The position numbers and the translations under genes are program-made. Below the pieces are notes generated by a model. The model was not told the origin of the DNA. It searched no databases and was given only the letters and a program-made list of their open reading frames with translations. This document shows positions 14,096 to 42,759 of a stretch of 64,000 bases of DNA, in pieces; position 1 is the stretch's first letter; each line of letters starts with the position of its first letter. This stretch comes from Patescibacteria group bacterium (GTDB lineage Bacteria; Patescibacteriota; Patescibacteriia; UBA9570): positions 290,268-354,267 of the forward strand of contig JBAZWO010000001.1 in NCBI GenBank assembly GCA_041660305.1, given 5' to 3'.

Positions 14096-14318
14096 CTACC
14101 TCACCTCCCGGCCTCCTCTCCTTAAAACTACCTTCCTCCCTAACCCTCCTTCCTCAAAGGCAGGAGGGAATAATTTCTTTAATTATCATTTCTTATCCCC
14201 CTCTCTCCTTAGAGGAGAGAGGGGGTTGGGGGGAGTGAGGTAGGTTGTTTAGGGGAGAGGGGGTTAGGCCATCGGCTCTGAGGCTCTGGCTCGAAGAGGG
14301 GAGAGGTAGTCTACCTCC
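14096..14318. repeat. GC-rich modular palindromic element, composite locus R3 (inverted partner of R4)
   Basis: It starts CTACCTCACCTCCC and ends GAGAGGTAG/CTACCTCC. About 170 bp match the reverse complement of 15677-15857. The rpsR stop codon (14311-14313) lies at its edge. Confidence 0.85.
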
Positions 14319-14532
14319 TAGTATACTGCAACAAGGCCATATAACGCGCGCGTTTAATGGCTTGGCTAAGTTTGCGCTGAATTTTGGCACTGACACCGAT
14401 ACGTTTAGCTGGTAAAATTTTGGCGTAATTAGAAATCACTTTACGTAACAAGACAATATTTTTGTAATCAATATTAGTTTCATCAACAATTAATTTTTCA
14501 CGCACTGGTTTATGAGAATGATTCATGGACAT
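14311..14532 (-). CDS. rpsR: 30S ribosomal protein S18
   Basis: 73 aa with the S18 pattern IDYKNIVLLRKVISNYAKILPAKRIGVSAKIQRKLSQAIKRARYMALL. Confidence 0.9.
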   Translation of the reverse strand: MSMNHSHKPVREKLIVDETNIDYKNIVLLRKVISNYAKILPAKRIGVSAKIQRKLSQAIKRARYMALLQYTRR

Positions 14533-14556
14533 AAAAAAACAAATAAATAATTTTTA

Positions 14557-15000
14557 TTAAAATGGAATATCTTCAACCCTAATTTCTTCACTAGGATTAT
14601 TCGTAACCGGTTCTGGTGCGGTTTGGGCTGGCTTTGACATAGTAGGATTGGCCGCTGCTACACCACTATTTCCCCTGCTATCTAACATAATCATGTTTTC
14701 CGCAACAATCTCCGTACGATATTTTTTTACGCCTTGTGGATCAGTCCAAGATCGAGTTTCTACTCGTCCTTCAATGTAAATTTTTGAGCCTTTTTTTACA
14801 TACTGTTGAATAATTTCCGCTAATTTACGCCAAGCTACAATGTTATGAAATTCGGCTTTGTCTTGCTTCTGCCCGGCCTGATCGGTCCATTGTCTATTTG
14901 TGGCCATAGCAAACGTGGCTACACTTTGCCCAGATGGAATAGTGCGCACTTCTGGATCGCGAGTTACGCGACCAATTAACATTACTTTGTTTAAATCCAT
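14557..15000 (-). CDS. ssb: Single-stranded DNA-binding protein
   Basis: 147 aa with an OB-fold N-terminus (MDLNKVMLIGRVTRDPE) and an acidic tail ending EDIPF. Confidence 0.9.
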   Translation of the reverse strand: MDLNKVMLIGRVTRDPEVRTIPSGQSVATFAMATNRQWTDQAGQKQDKAEFHNIVAWRKLAEIIQQYVKKGSKIYIEGRVETRSWTDPQGVKKYRTEIVAENMIMLDSRGNSGVAAANPTMSKPAQTAPEPVTNNPSEEIRVEDIPF

Positions 15001-15019
15001 AAAAATAAGTAATTAGTAA

Positions 15020-15547
15020 TTACAATTTTAAACCAATATCAGTATCATCTAAAATGGCGTCTAGCTTTTTATCAAGCTCTTCAATCGATACTGGTGTTTT
15101 GTCTTTTTTCTTTTCTTCTACCTTACTTGTTTCTACCACAGGTTTTTCTACAGTAGGTTCGGTAATTATCTTAGCCACTGGTGTAGCTGATACTACTGGT
15201 TTCTCTTCTGCTTTTGGTAGAGCGGCCGTAAAGTACGCTTGAATTTGTTCAGACGTAGCTGGTTTTGTTTTTATTAACAAATAACGCAACTTCACTTGAT
15301 TCAAGCTTAACACTTTATTTAATGACACTAGTTCTTTCGATTCCATATCGAAGTGTCTAACCACATAATAACCGTAACCCTGATCGTTAATTGGGTAGGC
15401 TAGGCGGCGGCGGGGCAAATCACAGGCCGCTGTGATAGTGCCGGCTCGTTCAGTAATAAAAGTTACTACCTGTTGTTTGGCTTCGGCTAATTTAGCCTCA
15501 TCCATGGTGCCAGGAAATACCACCATTAATTCATAATGTTGCAACAT
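15020..15547 (-). CDS. rpsF: 30S ribosomal protein S6 with Glu/Lys/Pro/Val-rich C-terminal tail
   Basis: The ORF track starts at 15652, but S6 homology begins at the internal MLQHYELMVVF (ATG at 15547-15545). An AAGGAAA sequence lies 8 nt upstream of that ATG. Confidence 0.8.
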   Translation of the reverse strand: MLQHYELMVVFPGTMDEAKLAEAKQQVVTFITERAGTITAACDLPRRRLAYPINDQGYGYYVVRHFDMESKELVSLNKVLSLNQVKLRYLLIKTKPATSEQIQAYFTAALPKAEEKPVVSATPVAKIITEPTVEKPVVETSKVEEKKKDKTPVSIEELDKKLDAILDDTDIGLKL

Positions 15548-15676
15548 GTTCAATTTTCCTTGTTGCGCTCTATCTATTACAGCGTTAAATGGGCTGTAAT
15601 TTGGATTAAAAGATAGATCACGCTTAAATATTAAGTATTTATAAGTTAGCAAAGATGGCTTTGTGAGTCAAGTACA

Positions 15677-15857
15677 CTACCTCTATCCCCAACCCTTTCC
15701 CCTAAACAACCTACCTCACTCCCCCAACCCCCTCTCTCCTCTAAGGAGAGAGGGGTATAAGAAATGATAATTAAAGAAATTATTCCCTCCTGCCTTTGAG
15801 GAAGGAGGGTTAGGGAAGAAGGTAGTTTTAAGGAGAGGGGGCTAGGGGGTGAGGTAG
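15677..15857. repeat. GC-rich modular palindromic element, composite locus R4 (inverted partner of R3)
   Basis: It starts CTACCTCTATCCCC and ends GGGGGTGAGGTAG. It is the reverse complement of most of R3, including the AT-rich core aataatttctttaattatcatttcttat. Confidence 0.85.
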
Positions 15858-15861
15858 TATT

Positions 15862-16326
15862 CTATCTTTCATCCGAGCCGTAGATAAAATTATCATCTAT
15901 CTTGGCGTAGGAAAATAATTCTTCTGATTTGAAAAATCTAGGAATTTCTTGTTGAGCAGTAGCTACAGAATCGGAGGCGTGAATAATATTATATTGTACA
16001 CTCATAGCAAAATCACCCCGAATGCTACCAGCATCAGCCGCTCGCCCTTTGGTAGGGCCAACAATTAACCGAATCGCCGCAATGGCTTCATAGCCTTCTA
16101 GTGCCATTACCACTACCGGCGAAGATTGCATGAACCGTTTTAAATCAGCAAAAAAAGGCTTGTCTTGATGATGAGCATAGTGTTCCGCAATTTTCACATC
16201 ATCAATCGCCATCATTTTTAAGCCAACTATTTTTAATCCTTTGCGTTCAAATCTACGAATTATCTCCCCTAATAAATTCCTTTGTAACGCATCTGGTTTT
16301 ACGATAATTAAAGATCGTTCCATCAT
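15862..16326 (-). CDS. ndk: Nucleoside diphosphate kinase
   Basis: 154 aa with ERSLIIVKPDA and the active-site region NIIHASDS. Confidence 0.92.
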   Translation of the reverse strand: MMERSLIIVKPDALQRNLLGEIIRRFERKGLKIVGLKMMAIDDVKIAEHYAHHQDKPFFADLKRFMQSSPVVVMALEGYEAIAAIRLIVGPTKGRAADAGSIRGDFAMSVQYNIIHASDSVATAQQEIPRFFKSEELFSYAKIDDNFIYGSDER

Positions 16327-16342
16327 AAATTAATTAATATAA

Positions 16343-16726
16343 TTATACAGCCTTAGTTTTACTTTTTAATAAATTATCTACTTTATCCACTACCTCCTGT
16401 GGTGTATGATTAGCTTTAATAAAATAATCATCCGCTCCTAACTCTTTACCTTTCTTTACATCTTCTTCCTGACCTAAATTAGTTAACAAAATAACTGGAA
16501 TATTCACTGTAGCCGGATTTTTGCGCATTTTTTTCAACGCCACAAAACCGTCCATTTTTGGCATAATCACATCTAATAAAATTAAATCGGGCTGTTCTGC
16601 TTCAGCTAATTTTACTCCGTCTGCGCCATTATAAGCTGAAACAACTGTATAACCATGGTTTTTAAACTTCTGGGTATACATGTCGTGAAGCATTTCGTCA
16701 TCTTCAACTAAAAGAATTTTAGCCAT
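16343..16726 (-). CDS. Stand-alone response-regulator receiver domain (CheY-like)
   Basis: 127 aa with an acidic pocket (VEDDE) and phospho-acceptor context LILLDVIMPKMDG. There is no output domain and no kinase gene nearby. Confidence 0.85.
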   Translation of the reverse strand: MAKILLVEDDEMLHDMYTQKFKNHGYTVVSAYNGADGVKLAEAEQPDLILLDVIMPKMDGFVALKKMRKNPATVNIPVILLTNLGQEEDVKKGKELGADDYFIKANHTPQEVVDKVDNLLKSKTKAV

Positions 16727-16786
16727 ATATTTTTCCTCCTTAATTTATATATAGTTTATTACCAAATTATTATAGCATTTTTATTA

Positions 16787-18205
16787 TTACTTGTACAACT
16801 GTTCAATTATCGCGCCAAATTGCAACAAGCTATCTTCAGAAAATTGCCTTCCTATTAACTGAACGCCTATTGGCAGCTGCTTAAGCTGTCCAGCCGGTAC
16901 GGCTAAACCAGGTAAGCCGGCTAATGAAACCGCGGCTAAATAAATATCGGCTAAATACATTTCTAGTGGATCCTGCGCTTTCTCCCCTACAGCAAAAGCC
17001 GTGTTTGGAGTAGTTGGAGTAATTATCACGTCTACCTCTTGGAAAGCTTTGGTAAAATCTTGTTTTATTAATGTGCGCACTTTAGCTGCCTTTAAATAAT
17101 AGGCCTCGTAATACCCAGCCGATAAAGCATAGGTGCCTAACATAATTCTACGCTTTACTTCATCGCCAAAACCTTCCGCCCGAGATTGGGCATACACCGA
17201 AAATAAATCTTCCACTTGTTCTGAACGATAACCATATTTAATACCATCGTATCTGGCCATGTTTGAACTTACTTCACACGGACATAAAACATAATAAGTA
17301 GGAATAGCAAATTGAGTATGTGGTAAAGAAATTTCTTTTACAGTTATTTTATATTGCTTTTTTAATTGAGCAATAACCTCTTCTATACGCTGTCGAACTG
17401 TTTCATTTAAACCAGCTACTGAAAAATATTCTTTTGGTACACCAATGGTTATTTTATTTAATTCGATTTTTTTAGAATTTTGTTTTACAACATTAGTACT
17501 AGCAATCGTAGTACTATCTAACGGATCAATACCAGTGATTTCTTGTAATACTGCTTGTGCGTCCGCGCAGGTAGTAGTGATTGGCCCAATGGTATCTAAC
17601 GATGAGGCCATAGAAATAACACCGTAACGCGATACTAGACCATACGTAGGCCGCAAACCAGCCACCCCACAATATGCCGCCGGTAAACGAATAGAACCAC
17701 CCGTATCCGTGCCCAGAGCAAACACCGCTAAATCAGCCGCCACGGCCGCCGCTGAACCACCGGAAGAACCGCCGGCAACCTTAGTAATATCATGCGGATT
17801 ACGCGTAACACCAAAACAAGAATTTTCCGTAGAGGCACCCATAGTAAACTCATCCGTATTGGTTTTGCCTAATAATACCGCCCCTTGATTATATAATTTT
17901 TTCGCTACAGTACCGGTATACGGCGGTATATACCCCTTTAAAATATTAGAACAAGCCGTGGTTTCAATACCATCCACACAAAACACATCTTTTAAAGCAT
18001 ATGGAATACCAGTCAGCGGCTGAATATCGCCCTTGGCAATTCGAACATCCGCTTGTTTGGCTTGCTCTAACGCGTAATCTTCCAACACCAATACATAAGC
18101 GTTTAACTCTGGATTGCGTTTTTTAATCCGCGCTAAATATTGTTGAGTTAATTCAACTGCAGAGATTTTTTTACTGTCTAATTTTTCTCGTAACTCTTTT
18201 ATCAT
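16787..18205 (-). CDS. gatA: Glutamyl-tRNA(Gln) amidotransferase subunit A
   Basis: 472 aa with the amidase signature GGSSGGSAAAVAA. Confidence 0.92.
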   Translation of the reverse strand: MIKELREKLDSKKISAVELTQQYLARIKKRNPELNAYVLVLEDYALEQAKQADVRIAKGDIQPLTGIPYALKDVFCVDGIETTACSNILKGYIPPYTGTVAKKLYNQGAVLLGKTNTDEFTMGASTENSCFGVTRNPHDITKVAGGSSGGSAAAVAADLAVFALGTDTGGSIRLPAAYCGVAGLRPTYGLVSRYGVISMASSLDTIGPITTTCADAQAVLQEITGIDPLDSTTIASTNVVKQNSKKIELNKITIGVPKEYFSVAGLNETVRQRIEEVIAQLKKQYKITVKEISLPHTQFAIPTYYVLCPCEVSSNMARYDGIKYGYRSEQVEDLFSVYAQSRAEGFGDEVKRRIMLGTYALSAGYYEAYYLKAAKVRTLIKQDFTKAFQEVDVIITPTTPNTAFAVGEKAQDPLEMYLADIYLAAVSLAGLPGLAVPAGQLKQLPIGVQLIGRQFSEDSLLQFGAIIEQLYK

Positions 18206-18212
18206 GGGATAG

Positions 18213-18244
18213 TTCCCCCTTTAGGGGGTTAGGGGGCTGGGGCC
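18213..18244. repeat. GC-rich palindromic element fragment, locus R5 (gatC tail / gatA leader)
   Basis: Contains the CCCCC-TTTA-GGGGG hairpin (18215-18228) plus TTAGGGGGCTGGGGCC. The gatC stop (18221-18223) sits in the hairpin loop. Confidence 0.7.
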
Positions 18245-18523
18245 AAATACTCCTTTAACTTTTAAATGATCTTCCGCTGTTTCAATGGCCGATTTAAACA
18301 TTTGTTCTCTAGTAAACTGATAATCAATAACATCCGGCCTGGTTTTATTGGCTAGGCCGGTAATTTGATACGTGGGCGTAACTTGGCTAGTATCCACCTG
18401 ATTTAATTGTTCCACAAATTTTAAAATAGTAGCAAATTCACCTTGAAAATGCTTAATTTCCGCTTCAGTTAGGTTAATTCTAGATAGTTTAGCAATTTTT
18501 TCCACTTCGGCTTTAGATAACAT
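18221..18523 (-). CDS. gatC: Glutamyl-tRNA(Gln) amidotransferase subunit C
   Basis: 100 aa with a GatC-like sequence. The last residues (GPSPLTP) are encoded by repeat R5. Confidence 0.85.
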   Translation of the reverse strand: MLSKAEVEKIAKLSRINLTEAEIKHFQGEFATILKFVEQLNQVDTSQVTPTYQITGLANKTRPDVIDYQFTREQMFKSAIETAEDHLKVKGVFGPSPLTP

Positions 18524-18529
18524 GGAATG

Positions 18530-18535
18530 ATTATA
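18530..18535 (-). promoter_or_regulatory. TATAAT -10 box 6 nt upstream of the gatC ATG (leaderless candidate)
   Basis: The minus strand reads ...TATACTATAATCATTCC-ATG. There is no SD. Confidence 0.4.
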
Positions 18536-18655
18536 GTATATTTTAACAAATATTGAAACTCACCTACTGCTTGCACATTTTATGTTAACTTGTTAAACTG
18601 GCGCGGTTATAAAAACCGCTCTTTGAAAAAAATTATGCATCCGGTAATTAAATTT

Positions 18656-18740
18656 GACCCTTCCCCCTACCCCCTTCCCTGCAAGGCAGGGGGTTTAACT
18701 CCATCCCTCTTGGCAGGAGGGAGGGCTGGGGTGGGAGGTC
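18656..18740. repeat. GC-rich palindromic element, locus R6 (inverted partner of R7)
   Basis: 85 bp, GACCCTTCCCCCTACCCCC...GGGGTGGGAGGTC. It differs at only 2 positions from the reverse complement of 21109-21193. Confidence 0.9.
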
Positions 18741-18859
18741 GAATCTATTTCTCGGGTGCATAATGGAAGATGCACAAGACTTAACTTGTTTAAGCTTCGT
18801 TCACAATTGGGTTGAATGAAGCAAAAATAAGTTGAGCAACAAACTTCCTAGAAAGGATT

Positions 18860-20700
18860 ATCGTAAAAGCCCAGCGGTTGCTGGTGCTTGGTCACAATAA
18901 CAATAATGTAATTGTGACCCGGTATGTTGTCAGCCAACTGTTCGAACCGCCGTGAGAAACCAATGACACAAAATAGTGTGTCTTGATTCGCTCGCGGCAA
19001 CTTGGGAGAAAGCAAAATGCAACTGAAACGTCTTTGGGGTTTAATACCCCTGAGTCTGTTGATGGTTGGTGTACAGGAGTGTCCGACCACGACAACGCCG
19101 CCGGAGTATGAGCGCACTATCATCAACTATGACCATGTCGCACTCAACTTTGATCCGAGTGGCACAATCACGGTCGATGCAGACGTGACCGTGGCGGATG
19201 GTGATCAGGGTGTGGCAGTCGATGTTGGGGACTTTGTTCCAACCTACTCCACAACAACATTCCACCAGGACGGTGCATATGAAATCTACGACGTACCGAC
19301 CGGTGGTGAGCAGACATTCCACTTATCCGGCAACACGACCTTGCAAAATTCGTGGCAGGGAGTCTCCTACATGGTTCACCCCGACTACGGATATTCAAGT
19401 GTACAATCGATCATCTGGCCGTACAACGGTGTCAACGTCGGTCCCTACCAGAACGACTCATTCTCGCGCCCTGATGGTATGGTGAAGTTCACATGGGGGG
19501 GAATCTACGGACTTGAAAACATGTTCGGTGGTCAGACACCCATCATCCTGCGAGGTGACACGGAAGGACCTGGTGGATCTGCCTACACGGCATTCGCATT
19601 GGCAGCAAGTCCTGACTACGACCTTTACGAAGTAGGGACGTCAAACGGAGGGGTTCTTCTCCGTTCGTACTATTTCAAATCTGATCCAGAACAGCCAGGA
19701 AAAGTCGCCTATTTGAACCGATACACACTATCTATGATGAACTGGCTCGAGAAAAACTTCGGACCCTATCCTCAAACCAAGTACACGAGCGCATCAGTTC
19801 TGCTCGGAACCGGCGGTGGTATGGAAGGTCCAGTCGTCATGTATGACAATCTCAACAGTGGCGACGCTTCCTGGTACGGCGGTGACCATGAACCGCCGCA
19901 CGCCTTCATCGGGACCAGTGTTAGAACAGGAGACCCTATCTACCAAGCCTTCAATGAGGGTACGGTAGTGAGTCTACAGACCGCTCATCTGAACGAAGAC
20001 GGTAGCCCAGCAGATTTCAAAACCGTCACTGACTTCCTCTGTGATATGATTCCCTACGCTGCTACGTATGAAAGGAACTTTGTGCCTTGGCCGGCAGGAC
20101 AGGAAGGAATGTATGCTCTGGATGAGATGACACGAGGAAGTACGTACTACAAAACTGGATTTATCTCGTGGATGCTCCAGGAAGAGCGCGGATACTCCGG
20201 CTACGTGAAAGGTGTGGACTTGTTTATTCAGCGACATCGAGACAATACCTTTACGGATGAGGAATTCATTCGCGACATGACCGATGGGTACGAAGGTGCT
20301 GTCAGCTATGACGAAATCTACACCAGATATGCTGAATTGCAAAACCCTAATTCTGTGTACCCTGCGGGCTACGAAACCTACTGTCCAGACGCCGCAAAAA
20401 CGTGGAAAACCCGCGACGAAAACTACTGGAAGATGCATGGCATCACATATCGTCTTCATCCGGGCATGCCGGCCTGGGGCGAGTACGTGAACTAAAACCA
20501 TCCTCCCCTTTTTTTTGAGAAGCACCCGGCGCTGACCTGAAAGCGCCGTGATCGGAGGATCTTCGCTTCTCCCTACCCAACAGGCCGCTCACCTGATCTC
20601 CCCGCCTTTCCCACCGAAAGCCGCGCGACGATAAAATGAGCAAATTCCTAGTGTTCATCTCTGCTACGCTAAAGCTACGCAGAAGGTGGGTAGTAGATAA
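18860..20700. other. Compositional island 1 (GC-rich relative to flanks)
   Basis: The line starting at 19081 has 34/60 G+C, against 17-19/60 in typical host lines. Boundaries are approximate. Confidence 0.7.
19017..20495 (+). CDS. Secreted M1-family (gluzincin) zinc metallopeptidase
   Basis: HEPPH followed exactly 18 residues later by E (FNEG) gives the HExxH-X18-E gluzincin motif. The upstream GGGMEG resembles the GxMEN exopeptidase motif. There is an N-terminal signal (MQLKRLWGLIPLSLLMVGVQEC). The ATG at 19017 is preferred over the track's TTG at 19002 because GGGAGA lies 7 nt upstream. Confidence 0.75.
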   Translation: MQLKRLWGLIPLSLLMVGVQECPTTTTPPEYERTIINYDHVALNFDPSGTITVDADVTVADGDQGVAVDVGDFVPTYSTTTFHQDGAYEIYDVPTGGEQTFHLSGNTTLQNSWQGVSYMVHPDYGYSSVQSIIWPYNGVNVGPYQNDSFSRPDGMVKFTWGGIYGLENMFGGQTPIILRGDTEGPGGSAYTAFALAASPDYDLYEVGTSNGGVLLRSYYFKSDPEQPGKVAYLNRYTLSMMNWLEKNFGPYPQTKYTSASVLLGTGGGMEGPVVMYDNLNSGDASWYGGDHEPPHAFIGTSVRTGDPIYQAFNEGTVVSLQTAHLNEDGSPADFKTVTDFLCDMIPYAATYERNFVPWPAGQEGMYALDEMTRGSTYYKTGFISWMLQEERGYSGYVKGVDLFIQRHRDNTFTDEEFIRDMTDGYEGAVSYDEIYTRYAELQNPNSVYPAGYETYCPDAAKTWKTRDENYWKMHGITYRLHPGMPAWGEYVN

Positions 20701-20725
20701 TATCTCAAAGGTTTTGGGATAAAAA

Positions 20726-21100
20726 TTATATTGATAACGTATCCAAAATGATTTTTAGTACACTATCAATATTTTTTAATATCTTATCATTACTAAATCG
20801 CAGAATATTACAGCCATATAATTGTAATACAAAATCACGCCCTTGATCTCGTTGCTGTTGATAGTTATGAATCTCACCATCAACTTCAATGACTAATTTC
20901 TTTTCGTGACAATAAAAATCAACAATAGAAGAATACAAAGGATATTGCCTACGAAATTTATATCCTAACATTTTACTACGCTGCAAATAATACCATAATT
21001 TCTCTTCTGCTTGAGTAGGATTATGACGTAAACTCTTAGCAAGATAATGCAGTTTATTTTGCAAAGTAATATCTCGAGATTGTTTGGATTGTGTTAACAT
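20726..21100 (-). CDS. DUF559 / Vsr-like endonuclease-domain protein
   Basis: Contains LWYYLQRSKMLGYKFRRQYPLYSSIVDFYCHEKKLVIEVDGEIH...ILRF, typical of DUF559. The ORF-track N-terminus MAGGRAGEGGQTH is read-through into repeat R7, so the ATG at 21100-21098 is preferred. Composition is host-like and AT-rich. Confidence 0.75.
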   Translation of the reverse strand: MLTQSKQSRDITLQNKLHYLAKSLRHNPTQAEEKLWYYLQRSKMLGYKFRRQYPLYSSIVDFYCHEKKLVIEVDGEIHNYQQQRDQGRDFVLQLYGCNILRFSNDKILKNIDSVLKIILDTLSI

Positions 21101-21108
21101 GTGCGTTT

Positions 21109-21193
21109 GACCTCCCTCCCCAGCCCTCCCTCCTGCCAAGAGGGAGGGAGTTAAACCCCCTGCCTTGCAGGGAAGGGGGTAGGGGGAAGGGTC
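21109..21193. repeat. GC-rich palindromic element, locus R7 (inverted partner of R6)
   Basis: 85 bp, GACCTCCCTCCCCAGCC...GGGGGAAGGGTC. The ligA TGA stop (21192-21194) overlaps its last bases. Confidence 0.9.
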
Positions 21194-23180
21194 ATTTTAT
21201 TAATTTTAGGAATTCCTGTTCAGATAAAATTTTCACTCCTAATTTTTTCGCTGTATTATATTTCGAGCCCGGCTCTTCTCCGGCTACTACATAATCGGTG
21301 CTTTTGCTCACGCTACTGGAAATTTTGCCGCCGGCTTGGCGGATTTTAGCTTTGGCTTCGTCCCGCAACATGGTTTTTAGAGTGCCGGTTAGCACAAAAG
21401 TTTTGCCGGTTATCTTATTGGTAGAGACAGATTGCAATCTGTCTCTACCAATTACGGATTGCACCTGAACATATTTCAATAATTCATCTAATTGAGCTTG
21501 CTGTTTTTTATTATGAAAATAATCATAAACACTTTTGGCTACTATTGGACCAATTTCTGGAATAGCTTGTAATTGTTCCAAATTATTATTACGTAATGCG
21601 GTGATGGTGGTAAATTGATTTGCTAACAAAATAGCGGTTTCTTCACCTACATGGCGAATACCTAAGGCATATAACAAACGAGGCAATGATACGTTTCGAG
21701 CTTGTTGAATTTCTTGCACCAAATTAGCGGCCGATTTATCGGCAAACCGATCTAGCGGCTCTAATACTACTTTGGTTAATTTAAAAATATCAGCAAAATT
21801 ATTCACTAACCCGGCTTGCATTAATTGATCGATTATTTTCGGTCCTAAACCTTCAATATCCAAGCCTTTTTTAGACACAAAATGATATAAGCGCTCTTGT
21901 TCCTGGGCAAAACACGCTGGATTAGTACAGTAATACGCTACTTCACCGGTTTTACGCGTTACTGCCGCGCCACAAACCGGACATTTATTTGGAAACATGT
22001 ATGGCTTACTATGTTTTGGTCGTAATGCCGGCAACACCTGCACTACATCGGGAATAATATCACCGGCTTTTTCTATAATTACCGTATCGCCTATTCGAAC
22101 ATCTAGCCGCTTGATTTCATCTTCATTATGCAATGTAGCCCGAGATACTGTAGAGCCAGCTACGGTAACCGGTCGTAAATGCGCTACCGGTGTTAACGCG
22201 CCAGTGCGCCCTACTTGCACTTGAATGTCTGCTACAATAGTAGTGGTTTGTTGTGCCGGGAATTTGTATGCCACTGCTCCGCGTGGCGCTTTACCTACCA
22301 CGCCTAATTGTTTAAAAATATTAATATTATCCACATTTATCACCATACCGTCTATCCAATAGGGTAATTTTTCTCTTATTTTCATTAATTGTTCGTAATG
22401 TTTTTGTACAGCGGCTAAATTATTACAACGTAAATTATTAGCATTAGACGGAAAACCTAATGTTTGTAAATATTCGTGCACCGCGGAATGATTTAAAATG
22501 GCCAAATTGGTTGCGCAATCATAGGCCATAAAGCTCAATTTCCTAGCCGCTACTACTTTAGGATCCAGCTGGCGAATACTGCCGGCGGCTACGTTTCTTG
22601 GGTTAGCGAATTTTTGTTCCGCTGTTTTATTAATCAGCTCAAATTGCTGTTTGGTCATGTACACTTCTCCTCTTACTTCTATGTGTTCTGGGTAATCCCC
22701 TTGCAACTGTAACGGTATTGCCTCAATGGTTTTTAAATTTTCGGTAACATCTTCACCAATTTTACCATCGCCCCGGGTGGAACCACGAACAAATTTACCT
22801 TGTTTATATTCTAACGCTACCGCTAAACCGTCCATTTTTATTTCTGTGTAATAAGCTAATGGCTCGTTAGTAAGCTTGGTTAAACGCTGTTCCCAAGCTT
22901 GTAATTCTGCAAAAGAAAAAATGTCGTTCAATGATAGCATTTTTACCGCGTGTGTTACTTTGGAAAAATTAGCCAATGGCAAACCACCAACTCGCTGACT
23001 GGGTGAATCCGGTGTAATTAAATCTGGATATTGATTTTCTAACTGTGTTAATTCATGTTTTAAAGAATCCAGCGCCGCTTCCGAAATTTCTTGTTTATCT
23101 AATACATGATAAAGATAACGATAATGCTCTATTTCTTTACACAGCTGTTTTAGACGAGTTTTAGCTTGGGATTTGGTCAT
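21192..23180 (-). CDS. ligA: NAD-dependent DNA ligase
   Basis: 662 aa with the adenylation motif EIKMDGLAV, a Zn finger CPVCG...CTNPAC, HhH repeats and a C-terminal BRCT domain (GKTFVLTGTL). Confidence 0.93.
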   Translation of the reverse strand: MTKSQAKTRLKQLCKEIEHYRYLYHVLDKQEISEAALDSLKHELTQLENQYPDLITPDSPSQRVGGLPLANFSKVTHAVKMLSLNDIFSFAELQAWEQRLTKLTNEPLAYYTEIKMDGLAVALEYKQGKFVRGSTRGDGKIGEDVTENLKTIEAIPLQLQGDYPEHIEVRGEVYMTKQQFELINKTAEQKFANPRNVAAGSIRQLDPKVVAARKLSFMAYDCATNLAILNHSAVHEYLQTLGFPSNANNLRCNNLAAVQKHYEQLMKIREKLPYWIDGMVINVDNINIFKQLGVVGKAPRGAVAYKFPAQQTTTIVADIQVQVGRTGALTPVAHLRPVTVAGSTVSRATLHNEDEIKRLDVRIGDTVIIEKAGDIIPDVVQVLPALRPKHSKPYMFPNKCPVCGAAVTRKTGEVAYYCTNPACFAQEQERLYHFVSKKGLDIEGLGPKIIDQLMQAGLVNNFADIFKLTKVVLEPLDRFADKSAANLVQEIQQARNVSLPRLLYALGIRHVGEETAILLANQFTTITALRNNNLEQLQAIPEIGPIVAKSVYDYFHNKKQQAQLDELLKYVQVQSVIGRDRLQSVSTNKITGKTFVLTGTLKTMLRDEAKAKIRQAGGKISSSVSKSTDYVVAGEEPGSKYNTAKKLGVKILSEQEFLKLIK
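21418..21451. repeat. 34-bp perfect palindrome inside ligA (GTAGAGAC family)
   Basis: TTGGTAGAGACAGATTG|CAATCTGTCTCTACCAA. It encodes IGRDRLQSVSTN in the linker before the BRCT domain. Confidence 0.85.
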
Positions 23181-23205
23181 AAAGGGAGAAATTAATCTGT
23201 ATTAT

Positions 23206-23279
23206 TCCCCCTCTCCTCAGAGGAGAGGGGGTTAGGGGGTGAGGTAGGATGTTTAGGGGAGGTAAAGAGGGAGAGGTAG
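23206..23279. repeat. GC-rich modular palindromic element, locus R8
   Basis: Contains CCCCCTCTCC-TCAGA-GGAGAGGGGG, then TTAGGGGGTGAGGTAG and GAGAGGTAG. It lies between the ligA start and the stop of the last pilin gene. Confidence 0.8.
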
Positions 23280-23282
23280 TTA

Positions 23283-24116
23283 TTATTTCGTTACCTTCTC
23301 CTCCGAAAATAACACATAATCAAAATAATTATTTAGAGGCGACCGCCATAACATGTTCGCCGTAACGGTTTGCTGATATTGCCCGGTGGTGCTAACACTA
23401 CTGATGGTAATTGTTTCTTTTAGCGGCACAAATTTAGTAGAGTCATTAATATCTAAAGCTTTAACTGATAAATCTGTAATATCACAATACAAGGCTTTTA
23501 AGCGCAGCTTATAAAGATAATCACGAGTTAAACCAAAACTACACCCATTATTGCATTCGTTATATACCCAACGTGTTTTTTGCATAGCTGTATTTTTAGT
23601 TTCACTATCCCATTCTTGTACCGTCCAAGCGGTGTCACTAATTTCTAATGTATTCACGTGCCCATCTCCACAGCTATTATTTGTCCAAGAAAACTGCACT
23701 GAACCAATATTATCCGGTACAGTAGTTAAGTAACTTAATGTTTTATTATAACTTTCCGTATAAAGATGCAGCTGATTCACTTCATTCTCAGCTAACGATA
23801 ATATTAATTCTTCATCCTGTGCTTGCGTAATTATGGTTTTACCAGCCGTAATAGTTTGTAACCGTTCATTCAGTGTAGTTGGATCTATTGTTTTAGCTGT
23901 TCGCGCCGACTGGGCATAATACAAACCCTGTTCCACTCCACTTTCAGCCGTCATAAAACCTAACGTGCTTTGCTTATAACTGGTAACAAAGCGTAAATTA
24001 TTTAAAATAATTAACGCTAACGTGCTAATAATCGCCGCAAAAATTATCAGCATAATCATTACAATTACTAACACCGAGCCGGCTTGATTAGTGGATAATT
24101 TAGCTTTAGCGTGCAT
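23283..24116 (-). CDS. PilX-like minor pilus protein (N-terminal hydrophobic helix)
   Basis: 277 aa with N-terminus NQAGSVLVIVMIMLIIFAAIISTLALI. It is the last gene of the pilin cluster. Confidence 0.5.
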   Translation of the reverse strand: MHAKAKLSTNQAGSVLVIVMIMLIIFAAIISTLALIILNNLRFVTSYKQSTLGFMTAESGVEQGLYYAQSARTAKTIDPTTLNERLQTITAGKTIITQAQDEELILSLAENEVNQLHLYTESYNKTLSYLTTVPDNIGSVQFSWTNNSCGDGHVNTLEISDTAWTVQEWDSETKNTAMQKTRWVYNECNNGCSFGLTRDYLYKLRLKALYCDITDLSVKALDINDSTKFVPLKETITISSVSTTGQYQQTVTANMLWRSPLNNYFDYVLFSEEKVTK

Positions 24117-24648
24117 AGTATCTACTAGTAGTTAAAGTTTGAAAATGCGTAGTAATTTTTGGATCATCAGCGCGCTGGGCATCTATTACCATCATTACTG
24201 CCGGCTGATTATTAACTGAACTACCATCGGCTTGAATAACTGTTGGGTCAGCGTTTGGATAAATATAAAATTGCAAGTTAGTTATTTTAACATTATTTCC
24301 GGTTAACAAATTAGTATCTATAGTAATATTACCATTTGTAGATAACTCTATTATATGCGTTTCACCCGTAACCGTGGTAACCGTTAAAAAATCAGTATAC
24401 GCTGTAGCTGCGGTATAATTAAAACTTTTTCCTTCCCGAATATAGCGCGCAATTTCACTGGTAGCATAAGTTACTTGTTCTTCCAGTTGTTTTTTACGAA
24501 TTTGCTGCAATGGCCCGCGTAAAAACATAATGAGTAATTGCATAACTGTAACTATAACAATAGCAAACACGGCTGTGGCCACTAACATTTCCACTACGGT
24601 AAAACCTTCTACTCGTTTATGTTTATTTAGTAATGATAGGATCGGCAT
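24106..24648 (-). CDS. Minor pilin with prepilin-type N-terminal cleavage/methylation motif
   Basis: 180 aa with KRVEG|FTVVEMLVATAVFAIVIV. Confidence 0.7.
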   Translation of the reverse strand: MPILSLLNKHKRVEGFTVVEMLVATAVFAIVIVTVMQLLIMFLRGPLQQIRKKQLEEQVTYATSEIARYIREGKSFNYTAATAYTDFLTVTTVTGETHIIELSTNGNITIDTNLLTGNNVKITNLQFYIYPNADPTVIQADGSSVNNQPAVMMVIDAQRADDPKITTHFQTLTTSRYYAR

Positions 24649-25327
24649 ATTTCCAATTATATAATTTTTCAGTAAAAATACGTTCTTGCTGTTCTCCGGC
24701 CTGTTGCCATATTACCTGTACCATAACCTGCACACCAATATCAATGTATCCACCGTCAACACAAGTAAGCGCTTCTGCACGCACTATTTCTGCCTGTGTT
24801 AAATCAGGTTCATTCGGATTAAAACAAATGGGAAATAACGTTACTAAGCGTTTAAATGGTGTGGCTGTTAAACCGATAAAATCATTGCCGCTGATTTGTA
24901 GATAATTTCCAGCCGTATCTTGCCGCACAATGGCTCTAGCATCCGATTCGTTGTCTACCGAAAAATCAAATTTAATAGCTAAATTAGGATCAACCTCGCT
25001 AGGTGTCCAAATATAGATAGCACTATAATCAACATTATCTGTGACAGTTTTACCATACAAACCTGTGTTATATCCTAATAAATTACTAGTAGCACTATCG
25101 GTAATACCAGCTTCCCGTTTTAGCCAGTTGCTATCGCGCACATAACGCGCCGCCTCGATAGCTTCCTGGCCAAGCTGAGTAGCTCTAGTTTCTGCTAACG
25201 CTCTAGAACTAGTAGACCATAAATTTACCAACAACGAAGCTAAACTAACAACACCAATTAAGATAATAGCAATCGCCATTAATGATTCTAATAAAGTTTG
25301 GCCGGATTGATTAGGTTGTTTCAACAT
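24623..25327 (-). CDS. Minor pilin with prepilin-type N-terminal motif
   Basis: 234 aa with NQSG|QTLLESLMAIAIILIGV. Confidence 0.65.
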   Translation of the reverse strand: MLKQPNQSGQTLLESLMAIAIILIGVVSLASLLVNLWSTSSRALAETRATQLGQEAIEAARYVRDSNWLKREAGITDSATSNLLGYNTGLYGKTVTDNVDYSAIYIWTPSEVDPNLAIKFDFSVDNESDARAIVRQDTAGNYLQISGNDFIGLTATPFKRLVTLFPICFNPNEPDLTQAEIVRAEALTCVDGGYIDIGVQVMVQVIWQQAGEQQERIFTEKLYNWKYADPIITK

Positions 25328-25333
25328 AATTTA

Positions 25334-25876
25334 TTACTCAATTAACGCGCTAGGATAATATAATGTTACTGGATTTTTTATTTGTTTTGTAGCTACATCT
25401 TGAAATACCACTTGAACGTTACCATTACTATTATAAACCGTGCCCCAATCTTTAGCATCAATAGTTACGGCTGTACTATTATTCCCTAAATAAAACATAA
25501 TGTCTTTAAAAATACCATCTGGTTCAACTTTTGTGTCAAAGTTTGTTGTAGACAAAATAACATCTTCAGTATTAGCTTGGTAACTTGGCGCATTATTTAA
25601 TTCCGCGTATAAGTTAATGGCCTTGTCCGTGCTATCAATGAACACGCCGTAGGCTTGCGGCGCTTGATTATTACAACACGTTTTTCCTGTTCTGGCATAC
25701 GTGCGCGCTAAGGTTAAGCTAGAACGATATTGATTCGCCGCTTCGGTAACCAAATCTTCCGGACTGCGCTGGCGAAAACTTAATAACGTAATAGTAGATA
25801 ACACCGCTATCATGCCCATTACGGTTACTAATTCAACTAATGAAAAGCCTGTTTTATCGCCACACATATAACACAT
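25334..25876 (-). CDS. Minor pilin with prepilin-type N-terminal motif (FimT/GspH-like)
   Basis: 180 aa with DKTG|FSLVELVTVMGMIAVLS. Confidence 0.7.
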   Translation of the reverse strand: MCYMCGDKTGFSLVELVTVMGMIAVLSTITLLSFRQRSPEDLVTEAANQYRSSLTLARTYARTGKTCCNNQAPQAYGVFIDSTDKAINLYAELNNAPSYQANTEDVILSTTNFDTKVEPDGIFKDIMFYLGNNSTAVTIDAKDWGTVYNSNGNVQVVFQDVATKQIKNPVTLYYPSALIE

Positions 25877-26630
25877 TGTGCATATACCAATAAACTAACG
25901 GCGTACCGTATAATAATCCTAACCAAGTGGCCACGCTTAAAAATGTACCAAACGGCAGACGATCTTGCATGGTTTTGCGGCGCCAAATTAACAACGGCAC
26001 CGCTACTACCGTGCCCAGCGCGTAAGCCAACAATAACGTAACTGTAATATTTGGCCAGCCTACCATAGCCCCCATTAGCGCCCCAAAACGCACATCGCCT
26101 CCGCCTACCCATTTGCCACGTGAAATTAAAAACTGCATTAAGAAAAAACCAGCTCCGGTTATTATACCAAGCATTATATTAATAGGATTCATGCCTAATA
26201 ATAAACCGCCTATTATTGCTATCATAATACCCGGCAACGTAAACCTATCCGGCAACAAATAATATTTTAAATCATACACAAATAACACTATTAACAACGC
26301 GCTGTACACGGCATAAATTGTTAATTTAAGCGGCTCTGCCCAAAACCAGGCACCTAGTATTCCAAAAATAATCGCCGTAACGCTTTCCACTACTGGATAC
26401 TGCCAAGCAATACCAGCTTTACAATGCAAACACCGGCCGCGAATGCCGATATACGAAGCTACCGGAAATAATTCGTACCAACTTAATGTAGTTAAACAAG
26501 CCGGGCAGTGCGACCGTCCCAGCCAAGATTCTTTACTGTTCGTGCGCAATATCACCACATTCAAAAAGCTTCCTATACCTAAACCAGCTAATACCGTAAT
26601 AATAATGATAACTATCGGCCAAAGTAACAT
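25854..26630 (-). CDS. pilD: Prepilin peptidase (A24 family)
   Basis: 258 aa, polytopic. It has the Cys motif CPACLTTL...GRCLHCKA and the catalytic-Asp context GGGDVRFGALMG. Confidence 0.9.
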   Translation of the reverse strand: MLLWPIVIIIITVLAGLGIGSFLNVVILRTNSKESWLGRSHCPACLTTLSWYELFPVASYIGIRGRCLHCKAGIAWQYPVVESVTAIIFGILGAWFWAEPLKLTIYAVYSALLIVLFVYDLKYYLLPDRFTLPGIMIAIIGGLLLGMNPINIMLGIITGAGFFLMQFLISRGKWVGGGDVRFGALMGAMVGWPNITVTLLLAYALGTVVAVPLLIWRRKTMQDRLPFGTFLSVATWLGLLYGTPLVYWYMHNVLYVWR

Positions 26631-26655
26631 GTTTTATATTATACCATATAACACC

Positions 26656-26684
26656 AAGAGGCCGCAGATCTGCGGCCTCTTTTT
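26656..26684. terminator. 26-bp perfect palindrome hairpin between pilA and pilD
   Basis: AAGAGGCCGCAGATCTGCGGCCTCTT followed by a T-run on the plus strand. On the minus (gene) strand it is preceded by an A-run and followed by GGUGUUAUAU. This is the usual position for attenuation after a major pilin gene. Confidence 0.5.
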
Positions 26685-26712
26685 CAGATGCTTACTTAAT
26701 AATTTTTATAAA

Positions 26713-27300
26713 TTATTCAGAAACACAGTAAACATATGGGCCGCTACCATCTTCACAAGTAGCAAATGCATCTGGTGAACTAACCGAGTAAATAACACTA
26801 GTAGCAAAATCAGCGTTCGCCCAACCTGGATGATCAGTTGTGGTAGTACTTAAATACTTCGTATCATCATCCCCACTAAGGGCAGGGTTATTATCTTCCA
26901 ATTTTGATACAACAAAAACATATTGCGTTGCGTCGCCAGAAGTTTGCGATGCACTATTGTTAGAGTAAGCGTAATAATCTGAGGCGTCATTGTCTGGAGC
27001 AGCTGGCGCTTGAGTAATAAATTCACCAATACCACCGCTTGCTGCCGTAGTAGTAATAGATGTGTCATTAGCAACAAAAGCTGCCCAGTTGGCCGGATCT
27101 GGATACTCGTTGTATTTGTTATAGAACAATTCAATGGCTCCCTGGTATTGTTTAGCGTCGGCAACACGTTTAGTATCACGGGCTTTTCGTTGTGCACCAG
27201 TTAAGGACACAATGGCTAAGGTAGCTAACAAACCGATAATCGCGATAACGATTAATAGTTCGATTAGCGTAAAACCTCCTGTTTTTTTATGCTGTTGCAT
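26713..27300 (-). CDS. pilA: Major type IV pilin
   Basis: 195 aa with KKTGG|FTLIELLIVIAIIGLLATLAIVSL, the canonical class III signal. Confidence 0.85.
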   Translation of the reverse strand: MQQHKKTGGFTLIELLIVIAIIGLLATLAIVSLTGAQRKARDTKRVADAKQYQGAIELFYNKYNEYPDPANWAAFVANDTSITTTAASGGIGEFITQAPAAPDNDASDYYAYSNNSASQTSGDATQYVFVVSKLEDNNPALSGDDDTKYLSTTTTDHPGWANADFATSVIYSVSSPDAFATCEDGSGPYVYCVSE

Positions 27301-40675: not shown

Positions 40676-40852
40676 ATTATAACATTTACGCTAACATGCA
40701 CATGATTTACATACAAGCGTGAATAGTCGACGGCGCTGAAATATTTATTTTTACCAATCCGCTGCACAAAAACTGGTTGTGCACTGGATTGGTGAGGAGG
40801 CGCAGGCAGGACACAAGATAAATTGTGCACGCGCCTCCCCTATCGTCTGCGA

Positions 40853-41602
40853 CTAGCCGTCCTGGCCATTGCAGTTTTGATCGATGTCGTCACCGTAAGG
40901 ATCGGGGGCGCCGGAGTAAATAGTTGGATCATTGTCATTGCAATCTGCTGCTGGCGACATAGGATCACACGACCCGCTGTAACCATCACCGTCACCATCG
41001 GGATCATCTTTGATCCCATTGCAGTTATTGTCCATACCATTACACATTTCTGGTGCCCCTGGATATATGTTCCGGTTATTGTCATTGCAGTCCTGGTTAT
41101 TTGTTACATAACCATATGGAGTGCTACAAGCTTGTGTAAAAACTTCAGGACTACCATAACTGTCATCATCAGCATCCTGGTAGTATGTGTTCTCCACATC
41201 TTCATCCACCTGACCATCACAATCATTATCCATAATGTCACAGCTCTCCGCAGCACCAGGATAAGAGTTAGTATTAGTATCGTCACAGTCATCTGTAGCA
41301 GTTACCCATCCTGGCAGCGGAGCACATGCCTCTCCTACTGCCACGGAAGTTCCGTATCCGTCGTTGTCCGCGTCCGGGTAATAAATGGTCTTCACACTAT
41401 CGTCAACCACGCCATCACAGTCATCATCCATCTCGTTGCAGCTTTCGGCCGCACCAGGATAGACCTGGTCATTCTGGTCATTGCAGTCGCCGTCAGCGAC
41501 CGAATAACCATCGACATCGACATCTTCAGTATCGGGACAGCCCTCTGCCCCAACGAACACAAACGCCGCCAAAAGAGGCAGCGCCTTCAGCCAGTTTCTC
41601 AT
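40853..41602 (-). CDS. Secreted Cys/Asp-rich repeat protein (MopE-type putative metal-binding motif, 4 repeats)
   Basis: The repeat is D.DGY....DC(N/D)D.....YPGA.E.C(N/D).(M/I)D(N/D)(D/N)C(D/N)G..D. The signal is MRNWLKALPLLAAFVFVGAEGC. The ATG at 41602 is preferred over the track's 41623 because AAGGAGG lies 5 nt upstream. Confidence 0.7.
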   Translation of the reverse strand: MRNWLKALPLLAAFVFVGAEGCPDTEDVDVDGYSVADGDCNDQNDQVYPGAAESCNEMDDDCDGVVDDSVKTIYYPDADNDGYGTSVAVGEACAPLPGWVTATDDCDDTNTNSYPGAAESCDIMDNDCDGQVDEDVENTYYQDADDDSYGSPEVFTQACSTPYGYVTNNQDCNDNNRNIYPGAPEMCNGMDNNCNGIKDDPDGDGDGYSGSCDPMSPAADCNDNDPTIYSGAPDPYGDDIDQNCNGQDG

Positions 41603-41914
41603 GGCTTCCTCCTTAAAAAACATTATCTCTATGTAAACAAGTATCCTGAAAAAATTATCAGGTTACTTGGAATTTTTAAAGAACAAAAAAATCCCCTGCT
41701 GTATATATAAAAGGATTAACTAAAATAATACTAGGGTATGTTGGCGACGGCGCTGCTAAAAAAACATCATTTTAGCTGTTGTAGTTAATAACCTAACGCC
41801 TGGGGATAAAATTTATACCGACGGCGCTAAAAATGTCTGGAACTATTCAATAAATCCACTAGGAACCTCTTCAAGAGATTCATACTGGATTTAGAGGCGG
41901 CGGGTTGAAATATA

Positions 41915-42667
41915 TTATTTCAAACACCGGCGCCTCCTTGTTATGGTGAGAAAAAGGGCGGTAAGAACCACCGCCAGACCCAGGGGCGGTCTGGCGGCCG
42001 ACTGCGTCGTAGAGCACGAGCAGCCGGGAACGGGGGGCGGCGAGACGAACTGATCGTCGTCGCCCGTGGTGTCGTCATCCCCCGCAGTGGCCGGGGGGGT
42101 GGGAGAAACGTCCGGAGTCGGCGAGACCTCCGGCGTGGGGGTGGGCGAGTCCCCCGTGGCATCGTCGTCGCCCGTCGAGTCGTCATCCCCGCCTTCAGGG
42201 GTCGGGGAGACGGGATCCGGAGTCGGCGTGGCCGTGGGCTCCGGGGTGGGGGGAGGCGAGTCCCCCGTGGCATCGTCATCGCCCGTGGCGTCATCGTCAC
42301 CCGCCACCGGTGTGGCTGGGGGGGTGGGAGAAACGTCCGGAGTCGGCGAGACCTCCGGCGTGGGGGTCGGCTCCGGAGTCGGACTGACCTCCGGGATGGG
42401 GGTGGAGATACAGTCCCCCGCGACCGACCCCTCGTCGGTCAGACCATCACAGTCGTTGTCTATACTGTCGCAAACTTCGGGAGCTCCCGGATATGTGTCC
42501 GGGTCGTCATCCCGACAGTCCCCAGTTGCACAACTAGGGTAGTCTGCCGAACACGACGACCCGTAGGCTCCCCATCCGTCGGCATCCTCATCGGTCCAAA
42601 CGGCCGACGCGGACGGGACGACGTATAGTGCTCCGAGAATCGTAAGGATCATGAACAAGTGCTTCAT
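41915..42667 (-). CDS. Secreted Pro/Thr-rich repeat protein with one MopE-type motif and a Cys-containing C-terminal sorting-signal-like tail
   Basis: 250 aa with signal MKHLFMILTILGALYVVPSASA and a tandem repeat EVSPTPDVSPTPPAT...GDDDxTGDDD. The C-terminus reads GCSCS, then a hydrophobic helix, then RRRRCLK. An AAGGAGGG SD is present. Confidence 0.65.
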   Translation of the reverse strand: MKHLFMILTILGALYVVPSASAVWTDEDADGWGAYGSSCSADYPSCATGDCRDDDPDTYPGAPEVCDSIDNDCDGLTDEGSVAGDCISTPIPEVSPTPEPTPTPEVSPTPDVSPTPPATPVAGDDDATGDDDATGDSPPPTPEPTATPTPDPVSPTPEGGDDDSTGDDDATGDSPTPTPEVSPTPDVSPTPPATAGDDDTTGDDDQFVSPPPVPGCSCSTTQSAARPPLGLAVVLTALFLTITRRRRCLK

Positions 42668-42759
42668 GGTCCCTCCTTATCTTTGCCAGCCCTCTTCACC
42701 GTATCCTGCACCATGCAAGAATTCAGATCAGAAAGCTGGACTTGTTGAAACAGAACATA

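Follow-up and report, generated by a model that had tools for sequence, protein, structure and literature searches.

The BoxC, PIT or TM_ECO repeats of Escherichia coli are intergenic, multicopy elements that are found in more than 260 genomes and are often arranged as inverted doublets (Holder et al. 2015, PMC4666352, citing earlier work of Bachellier and of Hoyne and Maher). In E. coli the triplex motif (TM) follows the consensus CCCTCNCCC-N3-6-GGGNGAGGG-N3-GGGNGAGGG (Table 1 of PMC4666352), its loci are hotspots of insertions and deletions (indels) and are tied to local indels and variable regions, PIT elements have neither promoter nor terminator activity, and the TM survey saw neither a shared neighboring gene nor any connection with mobile elements (PMC4666352). 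Among the closest described systems are the Vsr-related EDxHD homing endonucleases, of which I-Bth0305I is the prototype (PMC3239194, PMC3384342). Here we describe a locus in a 64,000-nucleotide stretch of the genome of a Patescibacteria group bacterium (contig JBAZWO010000001.1, of 491,640 bp, positions 290,268 to 354,267 of the forward strand), which we call the window and whose own coordinates are used throughout. Two near-identical 85-bp inverted arms (18656 to 18740 and 21109 to 21193) bracket a GC-rich orphan open reading frame (ORF) and an AT-rich gene of the DUF559 nuclease family between ligA and gatC, and on its sequence each arm is a head-to-head doublet of the BoxC/PIT/TM intrastrand-triplex repeat.

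We consider it somewhat probable that the locus is a gene for a Vsr/EDxHD-type nuclease flanked by inverted TMs with their G-rich blocks facing inward, a layout that recurs in other phyla. On balance we also favor, by a modest degree, the view that such a DUF559-TM unit split the ligA|gatC junction and captured a GC-rich orphan gene for a secreted, M1-like metallopeptidase, and it is rather more plausible than otherwise that foreign, GC-rich DNA of approximately 1.95 kb lies in this unit as well, beyond the 3' end of the DUF559 gene and before the distal doublet. The modules share with the TM_ECO elements of E. coli their architecture, with a loop of 3 to 7 nt and a linker of 1 to 5 nt, a near-identical sequence and the inverted doublet arrangement; they differ here in forming larger mosaics (85 to 137 nt), in overlapping stop codons, in one case lying in frame in recG, and in flanking a DUF559 gene. 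The repeat family itself is already known. Within the searchable literature, the TM family in Patescibacteria and the in-frame recG insertion are not described, and neither the publications on DUF559 nor those on intrastrand-triplex repeats report a DUF559-TM link or its consistent occurrence across phyla. The layout is also like that of the REP/BIME repeats with their RAYT proteins (PMC2817692, PMC3333891), where short palindromic repeats lie at gene ends in inverted doublets of variable copy number and one small nuclease gene is flanked by its own repeats. It differs in that the nuclease is of the Vsr/EDxHD PD-(D/E)XK type and not an HUH Y1 transposase (Y1_Tnp), and in that the repeat has a third, triplex-type block.

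The left arm consists of two oppositely oriented TMs with outer termini GACC...GGTC. TM-1 (approximately 18658 to 18694, reverse) comprises the third block CCCTTCCCCC, the linker TA, the pyrimidine stem CCCCCTTCC, a loop and the purine stem GGCAGGGGG; after the spacer TTTAAC, TM-2 (18701 to 18737) reads CCATCCCTC, loop TTGGCAG, GAGGGAGGG, linker CT and third block GGGGTGGGAG. The right arm is the same doublet inverted. Both arms thus obey the TM rule of a C-rich pyrimidine stem, a loop of 3 to 7 nt, a purine stem, a linker of 2 to 3 nt and a mirror G-rich block, as do the other copies in the window, which agrees with the proposal in the original prediction that the arms were built from the mini-element family of this stretch. 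In the right arm the module CCCTCCCTC-TTGGCAG-GAGGGAGGG forms a perfect 9-bp stem and GAGGGAGGG-CT-GGGGAGGGAG is a perfect mirror, and the strict TM scanner detects this motif with block length 11 at 21110 to 21148; the left arm has one stem mismatch, at 18703, and GGGGTGGGAG as its third block. The second module of each arm has a 9-bp stem with one mismatch. Of the two differences between the arms, one replaces A by T in the third block and the other breaks one stem pair of the left arm. A to T substitutions of the same kind in the third block are seen in the TM sequences of E. coli (PMC4666352). The G-rich third block of the right-arm TM-2, which includes GGAGG, stops 8 nt upstream of the ATG of the DUF559 gene. 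Nearest-neighbor folding of the arms shows only the pair of hairpins, which are closed by pairing of the C-rich with the G-rich tails, with z-scores of -1.0 to -2.2. A terminator role for these hairpins was considered and dropped: no T runs follow them and a consensus scan places no terminator in the arms. An Rfam search returned no match in the cassette.

When one arm is inverted, the two match at 83 of 85 positions (the mismatches being A/C at 18703 and T/A at 18732), exactly the two differences that had been counted originally, and they are 68.5% alike in direct orientation. A repeat search of the window lengthened the pair to 89 nt (18655 to 18743 and 21106 to 21194), 97% complementary across a gap of 2362 nt. 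A 21-mer of the arm, with at most three mismatches allowed, has two sites in the 64 kb, both in the arms, and none in 100 shuffles. The original prediction held that the arms are far more similar to each other than are other members of the family. Each arm does have the other as its closest relative in the window; however, such high identity is not theirs alone, with a second inverted pair being 96% identical over 137 nt and copies 32 to 37 kb apart being 94 to 95% identical over 49 to 66 nt.

The structure of the cassette is the same in three samples. An independent MEGAHIT contig, assembled at k=141, a length greater than that of the arms, is identical to the window from 14116 to 27261 and crosses both 89-nt arms to reach unique sequence on either side. 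A Logan unitig of a further run corresponds to 18673 to 21167, unitigs of two runs begin at 18684, and the NCBI genome assembly, the ENA assembly and the Logan unitig of the other run show 100% identity over the segment. One unbroken unitig (L003) holds both the AT-rich DUF559 gene and the GC-rich ORF. Unitigs at k=31 terminate within the identical part of the arms, which is expected because of the 48-nt identical stretch there. Exact-protein look-ups with ligA, gatC and the ORF for strain variants with an empty site returned only contigs that carry the cassette or are truncated in an arm.

That the segment is an insertion follows from a comparison with relatives whose ligA is 62 to 70% identical. 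In these the order pilin genes, ligA, gatC, gatA, response regulator and ndk is kept, and the gap between ligA and gatC is 19 nt in L007, 21 nt in L008 and 16 nt in L005. An empty junction of the kind that the original prediction pointed to is therefore present in three relatives, and the approximately 2.65 kb in the window is an insertion, which begins at the stop of ligA and reaches almost to the -10 box of gatC. As had been noted, the segment is wedged between the gatCA promoter region and the end of ligA. The stop codon of ligA, TGA (21192 to 21194, reverse strand), lies inside the right arm, the outer end of which provides it and forms the right boundary of the insertion; since the C-terminus of the protein (...EQEFLKLIK*) ends where those of the relatives end, the insertion starts exactly at the stop codon. 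At the other side, gatC starts at 18523, 132 nt from the left arm. This AT-rich spacer (18524 to 18655, reverse strand) shares only its last 12 to 20 nt with the ligA|gatC junction of the relatives, and before gatC it retains TATAAT at 18530 to 18535, then CATTCC and then ATG, the relatives having TATAAT-CATYCC-ATG. No convincing target-site duplication was found at the cassette, the flanks being ...TAATTAAATT|T GACC and GGTCA|TTTTATTAA..., with only AT-rich noise in common.

Two further observations concern this junction. The conserved TATAAT stands just 6 nt before the ATG of gatC (18524 to 18536), also in L007 and L008, which suggests that transcription begins within ligA or directly behind it and yields an mRNA with little or no leader. 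A different relative, L009 (ligA 66% identical), has a different GC-rich insert of 434 nt with a 92-amino acid ORF at the same junction (11990 to 12422 of L009), which suggests that ligA|gatC is a recurrent insertion spot.

The orphan ORF (19017 to 20495, forward strand) encodes 492 amino acids with a signal peptide-like N-terminus. Its GC content is 0.51 and its GC content at third codon positions (GC3) is 0.56, compared with a GC3 of 0.29 to 0.34 in host genes nearby, and at the segment the GC content steps from 0.39 to 0.51. A gluzincin motif in the protein, HEPPH followed by 18 residues and E, corresponds to the HEXXH-X18-E zinc-binding pattern. Matches to aminopeptidase N structures in the PDB (E = 0.016 and 0.023) are anchored on this motif, and the sole remote homolog, P0122 (E = 3.4e-4), bears Pfam Peptidase_M1. 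Neither Pfam nor NCBIfam gave a match even at E values up to 10, the Peptidase_M1 model included; a word search of 5.8 billion proteins returned only the ORF itself, one further, marginal match came from a full HMMER scan of 1.84 billion representatives, and a single-sequence AlphaFold model (pLDDT 36) was unusable. The foreign composition and orphan status of the gene that had been called a GC-rich M1 peptidase gene are thus borne out, and the peptidase label is weakened to a possible distant relationship with M1 aminopeptidases. We interpret the ORF as captured foreign cargo. In its noncoding leader (18741 to 19016, forward strand) is a perfect 9-bp palindrome, GGTCACAAT-N12-ATTGTGACC at 18890 to 18919, approximately 100 nt upstream of the ORF, which could be an operator brought along with the foreign gene.

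The convergent spacer between the two genes (20496 to 20725) is GC-rich to near 20690, and in it, approximately 100 nt beyond the stop of the DUF559 gene, there is a degenerate hairpin that resembles a TM and has a 5' tail rich in C (20603 to 20623). The DUF559 gene (20726 to 21100, reverse strand) has a GC content of 0.29, as AT-rich as originally described, and encodes 124 amino acids with DUF559 as the sole domain. Neither the cassette nor the precomputed domain calls for 14116 to 27261 (approximately 13 kb) include a transposase, invertase or recombinase, and no second copy of the cassette was found in the databases searched; it is present in this genome only.

The small protein belongs to DUF559: it matches PF04480 with 117.6 bits (gathering cutoff 20.6, E = 3e-34) and keeps all of the family-invariant residues, D61, E72, D74, G75, H78 and D85, and R101 too. 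The EDxHD-type pattern E72-x-D74...H78...D85 is invariant in DUF559. A profile of 20 DUF559 proteins matches PDB 3HRL, an uncharacterized "endonuclease-like protein" (E = 1.7e-37), and PDB 3R3P, the catalytic domain of I-Bth0305I (E = 3.6e-5). The window protein is therefore likely, from these profile matches, to have a Vsr-like or EDxHD-like nuclease core; PADLOC defense models gave weak matches to nuclease domains only. In common with I-Bth0305I and the EDxHD homing endonucleases are the catalytic core, as judged by sequence, and the occurrence as intruder genes, lying between conserved genes or within them. The differences are that DUF559 has no N-terminal NUMOD or HTH domain, that it is free-standing and not within an intron or intein, and that its flanks are members of a repeat family and not a unique conserved gene. 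DUF559 genes typically intrude at tight junctions, such as ligA|gatC, sufB|sufC, the hpa operon and sapF-fabI in E. coli, and the C-terminal peptides of many DUF559 proteins in other phyla look as if a TM encoded them, for example SPSPQGEG and SPCKGRARVG.

Other genomes support a link between the gene and the repeat. At all 16 loci examined, a TM lies within 174 nt of a DUF559 gene, and these loci span Patescibacteria, two low-GC loci (one of Salinivirgaceae), alpha-, beta- and gammaproteobacteria including E. coli with ycjD, cyanobacteria and Deinococcus. Of the 12 loci from outside Patescibacteria, 6 have no further TM in the 10 to 20 kb retrieved around them. DUF559 genes are thus recurrently found between or beside TM repeats. 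The suggestion that other DUF559 genes of this genome might be flanked by the same repeat accordingly proved correct in a broader form, since the same kind of repeat accompanies DUF559 here and in many other genomes. The closest DUF559 homolog (61% identity; L011 to L014 and L017, found in four metagenome samples) is directly preceded at its ATG by an 82%-identical doublet, in the same orientation as in the window and in a different genomic context, with a TPP-riboswitch-controlled SBP gene as neighbor; when the metagenome collection was scanned for the shared hairpin pattern, the L011-type contig was the one locus returned. Inverted TMs also stand on both sides of a 55%-identical DUF559 paralog in the same genome (L010) and of a 57% homolog in another Patescibacteria genome (L015/L016).

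Three DUF559 homologs on long contigs (L019, L020 and L023) were picked without regard to repeats, and in each of them, L020 being the Salinivirgaceae member, every robust TM within 20 kb flanks DUF559; L023, a 6.7-Mb genome with two DUF559 genes, has doublet elements of 115 to 170 nt on both sides. Eight more loci were obtained by tblastn of plasmid and chromid records (Synechocystis, Picosynechococcus, Azospirillum, Neisseria gonorrhoeae, Sphingomonas, Deinococcus, Sinorhizobium and Photobacterium). All eight have a TM within 100 nt of DUF559, that of Sinorhizobium by eye only, and four have no further TM in the 10 kb fetched. The DUF559 gene of Sphingomonas lies, enclosed by two inverted TMs, exactly between sufB and sufC. 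In Photobacterium (L031, 5352 to 6940) a tandem array of TM doublets runs for 1.6 kb from 58 nt after the DUF559 stop, and in N. gonorrhoeae (L027, 5495 to 6196) a similar array runs for 0.7 kb from 177 nt after it; no TM is present elsewhere in the 10 kb fetched for either. In E. coli K-12, where TM loci number only 18, a degenerate TM runs over the stop codon of ycjD and TM_ECO #9 lies 174 nt downstream. A placement test that was kept conservative on purpose, within the 8 to 20 kb fetched, gave a combined p = 0.0016, with two loci scored p = 1. The motifs TTGAGCGCTCA and GAGCGTTTTTAT, shared upstream of DUF559 in L010 and L011, were dropped as candidates since their orientation is inconsistent; TTGAGCGCTCA is found in the window at 51110 only.

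The ycjD locus resembles ours in pairing a DUF559 gene with TMs, there a degenerate one over the stop codon and a canonical one downstream, and in occupying a site that holds alternative cargo in other lineages, with ycjD replacing the eefRABCD operon at sapF-fabI in whole E. coli phylogroups (PMC12817139). It differs in that ycjD is stable in phylogroups, has no bracketing inverted pair of high identity and has no cargo inside the unit. In the cyanobacterial plasmids (L024, 4316 to 6840, and L025, 4479 to 8828), DUF559 adjoins and possibly splits a DUF1156 methylase-like gene, which suggests that it was inserted into or beside that gene; the surroundings are defense-type clusters with DUF499, DUF3883 and PIN genes.

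Gene ends in this genome bear numerous TM units. Approximately 15 robust TM copies occur in the window, nearly all in spacers or over stop codons and most densely from 11.8 to 23.3 kb, and doublets lie at 18656 to 18740, 21109 to 21193 and 55447 to 55536. The third doublet, of 90 nt (CCTACCTCA...TGAGGTAGG, forward strand), lies in frame within recG (54388 to 56502), where it adds approximately 32 residues (...VLPHPPTPSPLRRGGEFLPSPLRRRAGDEVG...) to a linker that has approximately 14 residues in solved RecG structures, and its fold has a nearest-neighbor z-score of -7.1. It is flanked by AGCG...AGCG, which is possibly a 4-bp target duplication, though chance could explain it. The in-frame position and these flanks indicate that doublets act as discrete insertions, and the TM family behaves as discrete, recently active insertions. 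Miniature inverted-repeat transposable elements and Rickettsia palindromic elements are small noncoding palindromic insertions at many sites, and Rickettsia palindromic elements insert in frame inside conserved protein genes, as the recG doublet does. The TMs differ from both in having no linked transposase family and in showing a possible target duplication once (4 bp).

A second inverted pair (14096 to 14232, between efp and rpsR, and 15721 to 15857, between rpsF and ndk; 137 nt, 96%) is a mosaic of several TMs and AT-rich spacer and brackets rpsF-ssb-rpsR; a partial third copy lies at 50985 to 51050 (66 nt, 95%). The bracketed core operon keeps the same order and position in L007 and therefore has not moved, so that bracketing repeats are in themselves no evidence of mobile contents. 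A single canonical TM, CCCCCTCTCCT CAG AGGAGAGGGGG TTA GGGGGTGAGGT, lies upstream of ligA (23206 to 23245, forward strand), and the strict motif scanner finds one TM at the same junction in the relatives L008 and L009. Stop codons are overlapped by TMs in gatC (18214 to 18236) and ligA (21192 to 21194), and the stop of the DUF559 gene is overlapped in L010, L023, Sphingomonas and E. coli ycjD. Host genes thus receive their last codons or their stop from the repeats. Another GC-rich island, at 40800 to 42700 (up to 73% GC, GC3 0.73), contains two ORFs (40853 to 41623 and 41915 to 42667, reverse strand) with MopE-type copper-binding repeats and internal tandem repeats. A TM at 42778 to 42807 sits at the border of this island, which may be a further case of foreign DNA acquired beside a TM.

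We propose the following model. An ancestral DUF559-TM unit would have resembled that of Sphingomonas, with inverted TMs, G-rich blocks inward and the proximal TM a few bases before the ATG; approximately 1.95 kb of foreign DNA would then have entered between the DUF559 3' end and the distal doublet, the hairpin at 20603 to 20623 lying at this border. DUF559 would be a free-standing homing-type or structure-specific nuclease cutting at or near TM DNA, and the breaks would be repaired from other TM copies, so that nearby copies are duplicated or homogenized and foreign DNA is at times captured. Repair of this kind would account for the near-identical neighbors, the spread of doublets and the occasional foreign capture. 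Inverted pairs would persist because direct repeats of such identity would delete the intervening DNA. The model draws support from the profile match to 3R3P, the indel hotspots at TM loci of E. coli, the exchange of ycjD for eefRABCD at sapF-fabI, the enrichment of DUF559 genes among predicted inversion targets (PMC9881135) and the doublet within recG. More generally, and more tentatively, YcjD-like DUF559 proteins may be the cognate nucleases of BoxC/PIT/TM repeats across bacteria, either as an analog of the RAYT-REPIN system or as free-standing homing endonucleases for which TM doublets would serve as target and homology arms; we put this wider proposal at somewhat short of an even chance.

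Several facts weigh against this model. The action of DUF559 on TM DNA is something that we infer, and no DUF559 protein is known to be active on it. Approximately 110 nt of AT-rich inserted DNA lie outside the left arm. The second inverted pair of the window has no DUF559 gene. In E. coli, ycjD is present as a single, syntenic copy in 3378 of 5426 genomes and is hence not visibly mobile there. The geometry of the flanks varies, from direct doublets in L019, L020 and L023 to inverted single TMs in L010, L015, L028 and L029, and L011 has a complete doublet upstream only. The linkage sample is one of 16 loci and not a genome-wide census; approximately half of the window spacers of at least 60 nt hold a TM, and chance adjacency is expected to be fairly frequent in TM-rich genomes such as this one and PCC 7002. 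The G-rich block before the DUF559 ATG could also be merely a ribosome-binding or regulatory structure.

In a rival explanation, ordinary TMs landed or were gene-converted beside a horizontally acquired island and DUF559 is a small accessory or selfish gene that gathers in permissive spacers and has no functional tie to the repeats. TMs in approximately half of the longer spacers, copies of high identity 32 to 37 kb apart, and the different GC-rich insert of L009, which marks the junction as permissive, would all fit such a coincidence. We nonetheless think it unlikely, given that in the TM-poor L019, L020, L023, Azospirillum and Deinococcus loci, and in the Neisseria and Photobacterium arrays, the only TMs in 10 to 20 kb flank DUF559, that E. 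coli ycjD is another such case, and that the homologous doublet-DUF559 arrangement is found again in L011 in a different genomic context. A chimeric assembly, in which GC-rich DNA of a foreign organism was joined at the repeats, would explain the GC jump from 0.39 to 0.51, the repeats at both borders and the orphan gene; with the k=141 contig reading through both arms, three assemblies or unitigs 100% identical, and DUF559 and the GC-rich ORF on the one uninterrupted unitig L003, it is extremely improbable.

The original prediction itself likened the geometry to a composite or foldback mobile unit or an invertible cassette. If the segment were a transposon, the arms would be the ends of a unit inserted whole, with peptidase-like cargo and DUF559 as the mobility enzyme, and this would agree with the empty sites in relatives, with arms at or near both boundaries and the right boundary exactly at the ligA stop, with the foreign cargo, and with the recG doublet having inserted as a discrete unit with a possible 4-bp duplication. 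Only DUF559 and the family-less ORF lie inside, however, with no DDE, serine, tyrosine or HUH enzyme, and a PD-(D/E)XK or Vsr-type nuclease alone is not known to join strands. There is no target duplication at the cassette, approximately 110 nt of inserted DNA extend beyond the left arm, no second copy of the cassette was found in the databases searched, which show it in this genome only, and an equivalent inverted pair brackets an unmoved core operon; a composite or foldback unit in the proposed sense was thus not upheld and we regard it as quite unlikely. Recombination between the 85-bp arms could instead flip the 2.4 kb as a phase-variable segment. Arms that are inverted and identical at 83 of 85 positions, the breaks of short-k assemblies inside them, and the enrichment of DUF559 coding sequences (odds ratio 14.3) among predicted targets of programmed inversion (PMC9881135) speak for this. 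But no invertase gene is present in or near the segment, a flip would alter no reading frame and no obvious promoter-gene relation, the k=141 contig, the genome assembly and all other assemblies agree on one orientation, and k=31 breaks are expected from any 48-nt identical stretch. We regard a programmed inversion as very unlikely, but passive recombination between the arms may flip the segment.

Described in E. coli as early as the 1990s, the BoxC/PIT/TM repeats are present in hundreds of genomes and go along with local genome instability, and no enzyme, mobility mechanism or common neighbor has been identified for them, PMC4666352 stating that none was found. DUF559 is a very large family of small nucleases whose function is not known. 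Their consistent physical pairing, found in organisms as distant as Patescibacteria and E. coli, gives a testable hypothesis for both. In this bacterium the DUF559-TM pairing would explain the split ligA-gatC operon junction, the presence of a foreign gene in a very small, streamlined genome, and the assembly breaks. If the proposal is true, then a nuclease, and not the triplex structure alone, would cause the instability at TM loci, and DUF559 would drive both the spread of the repeats and the occasional capture of cargo, as in the cassette described here.

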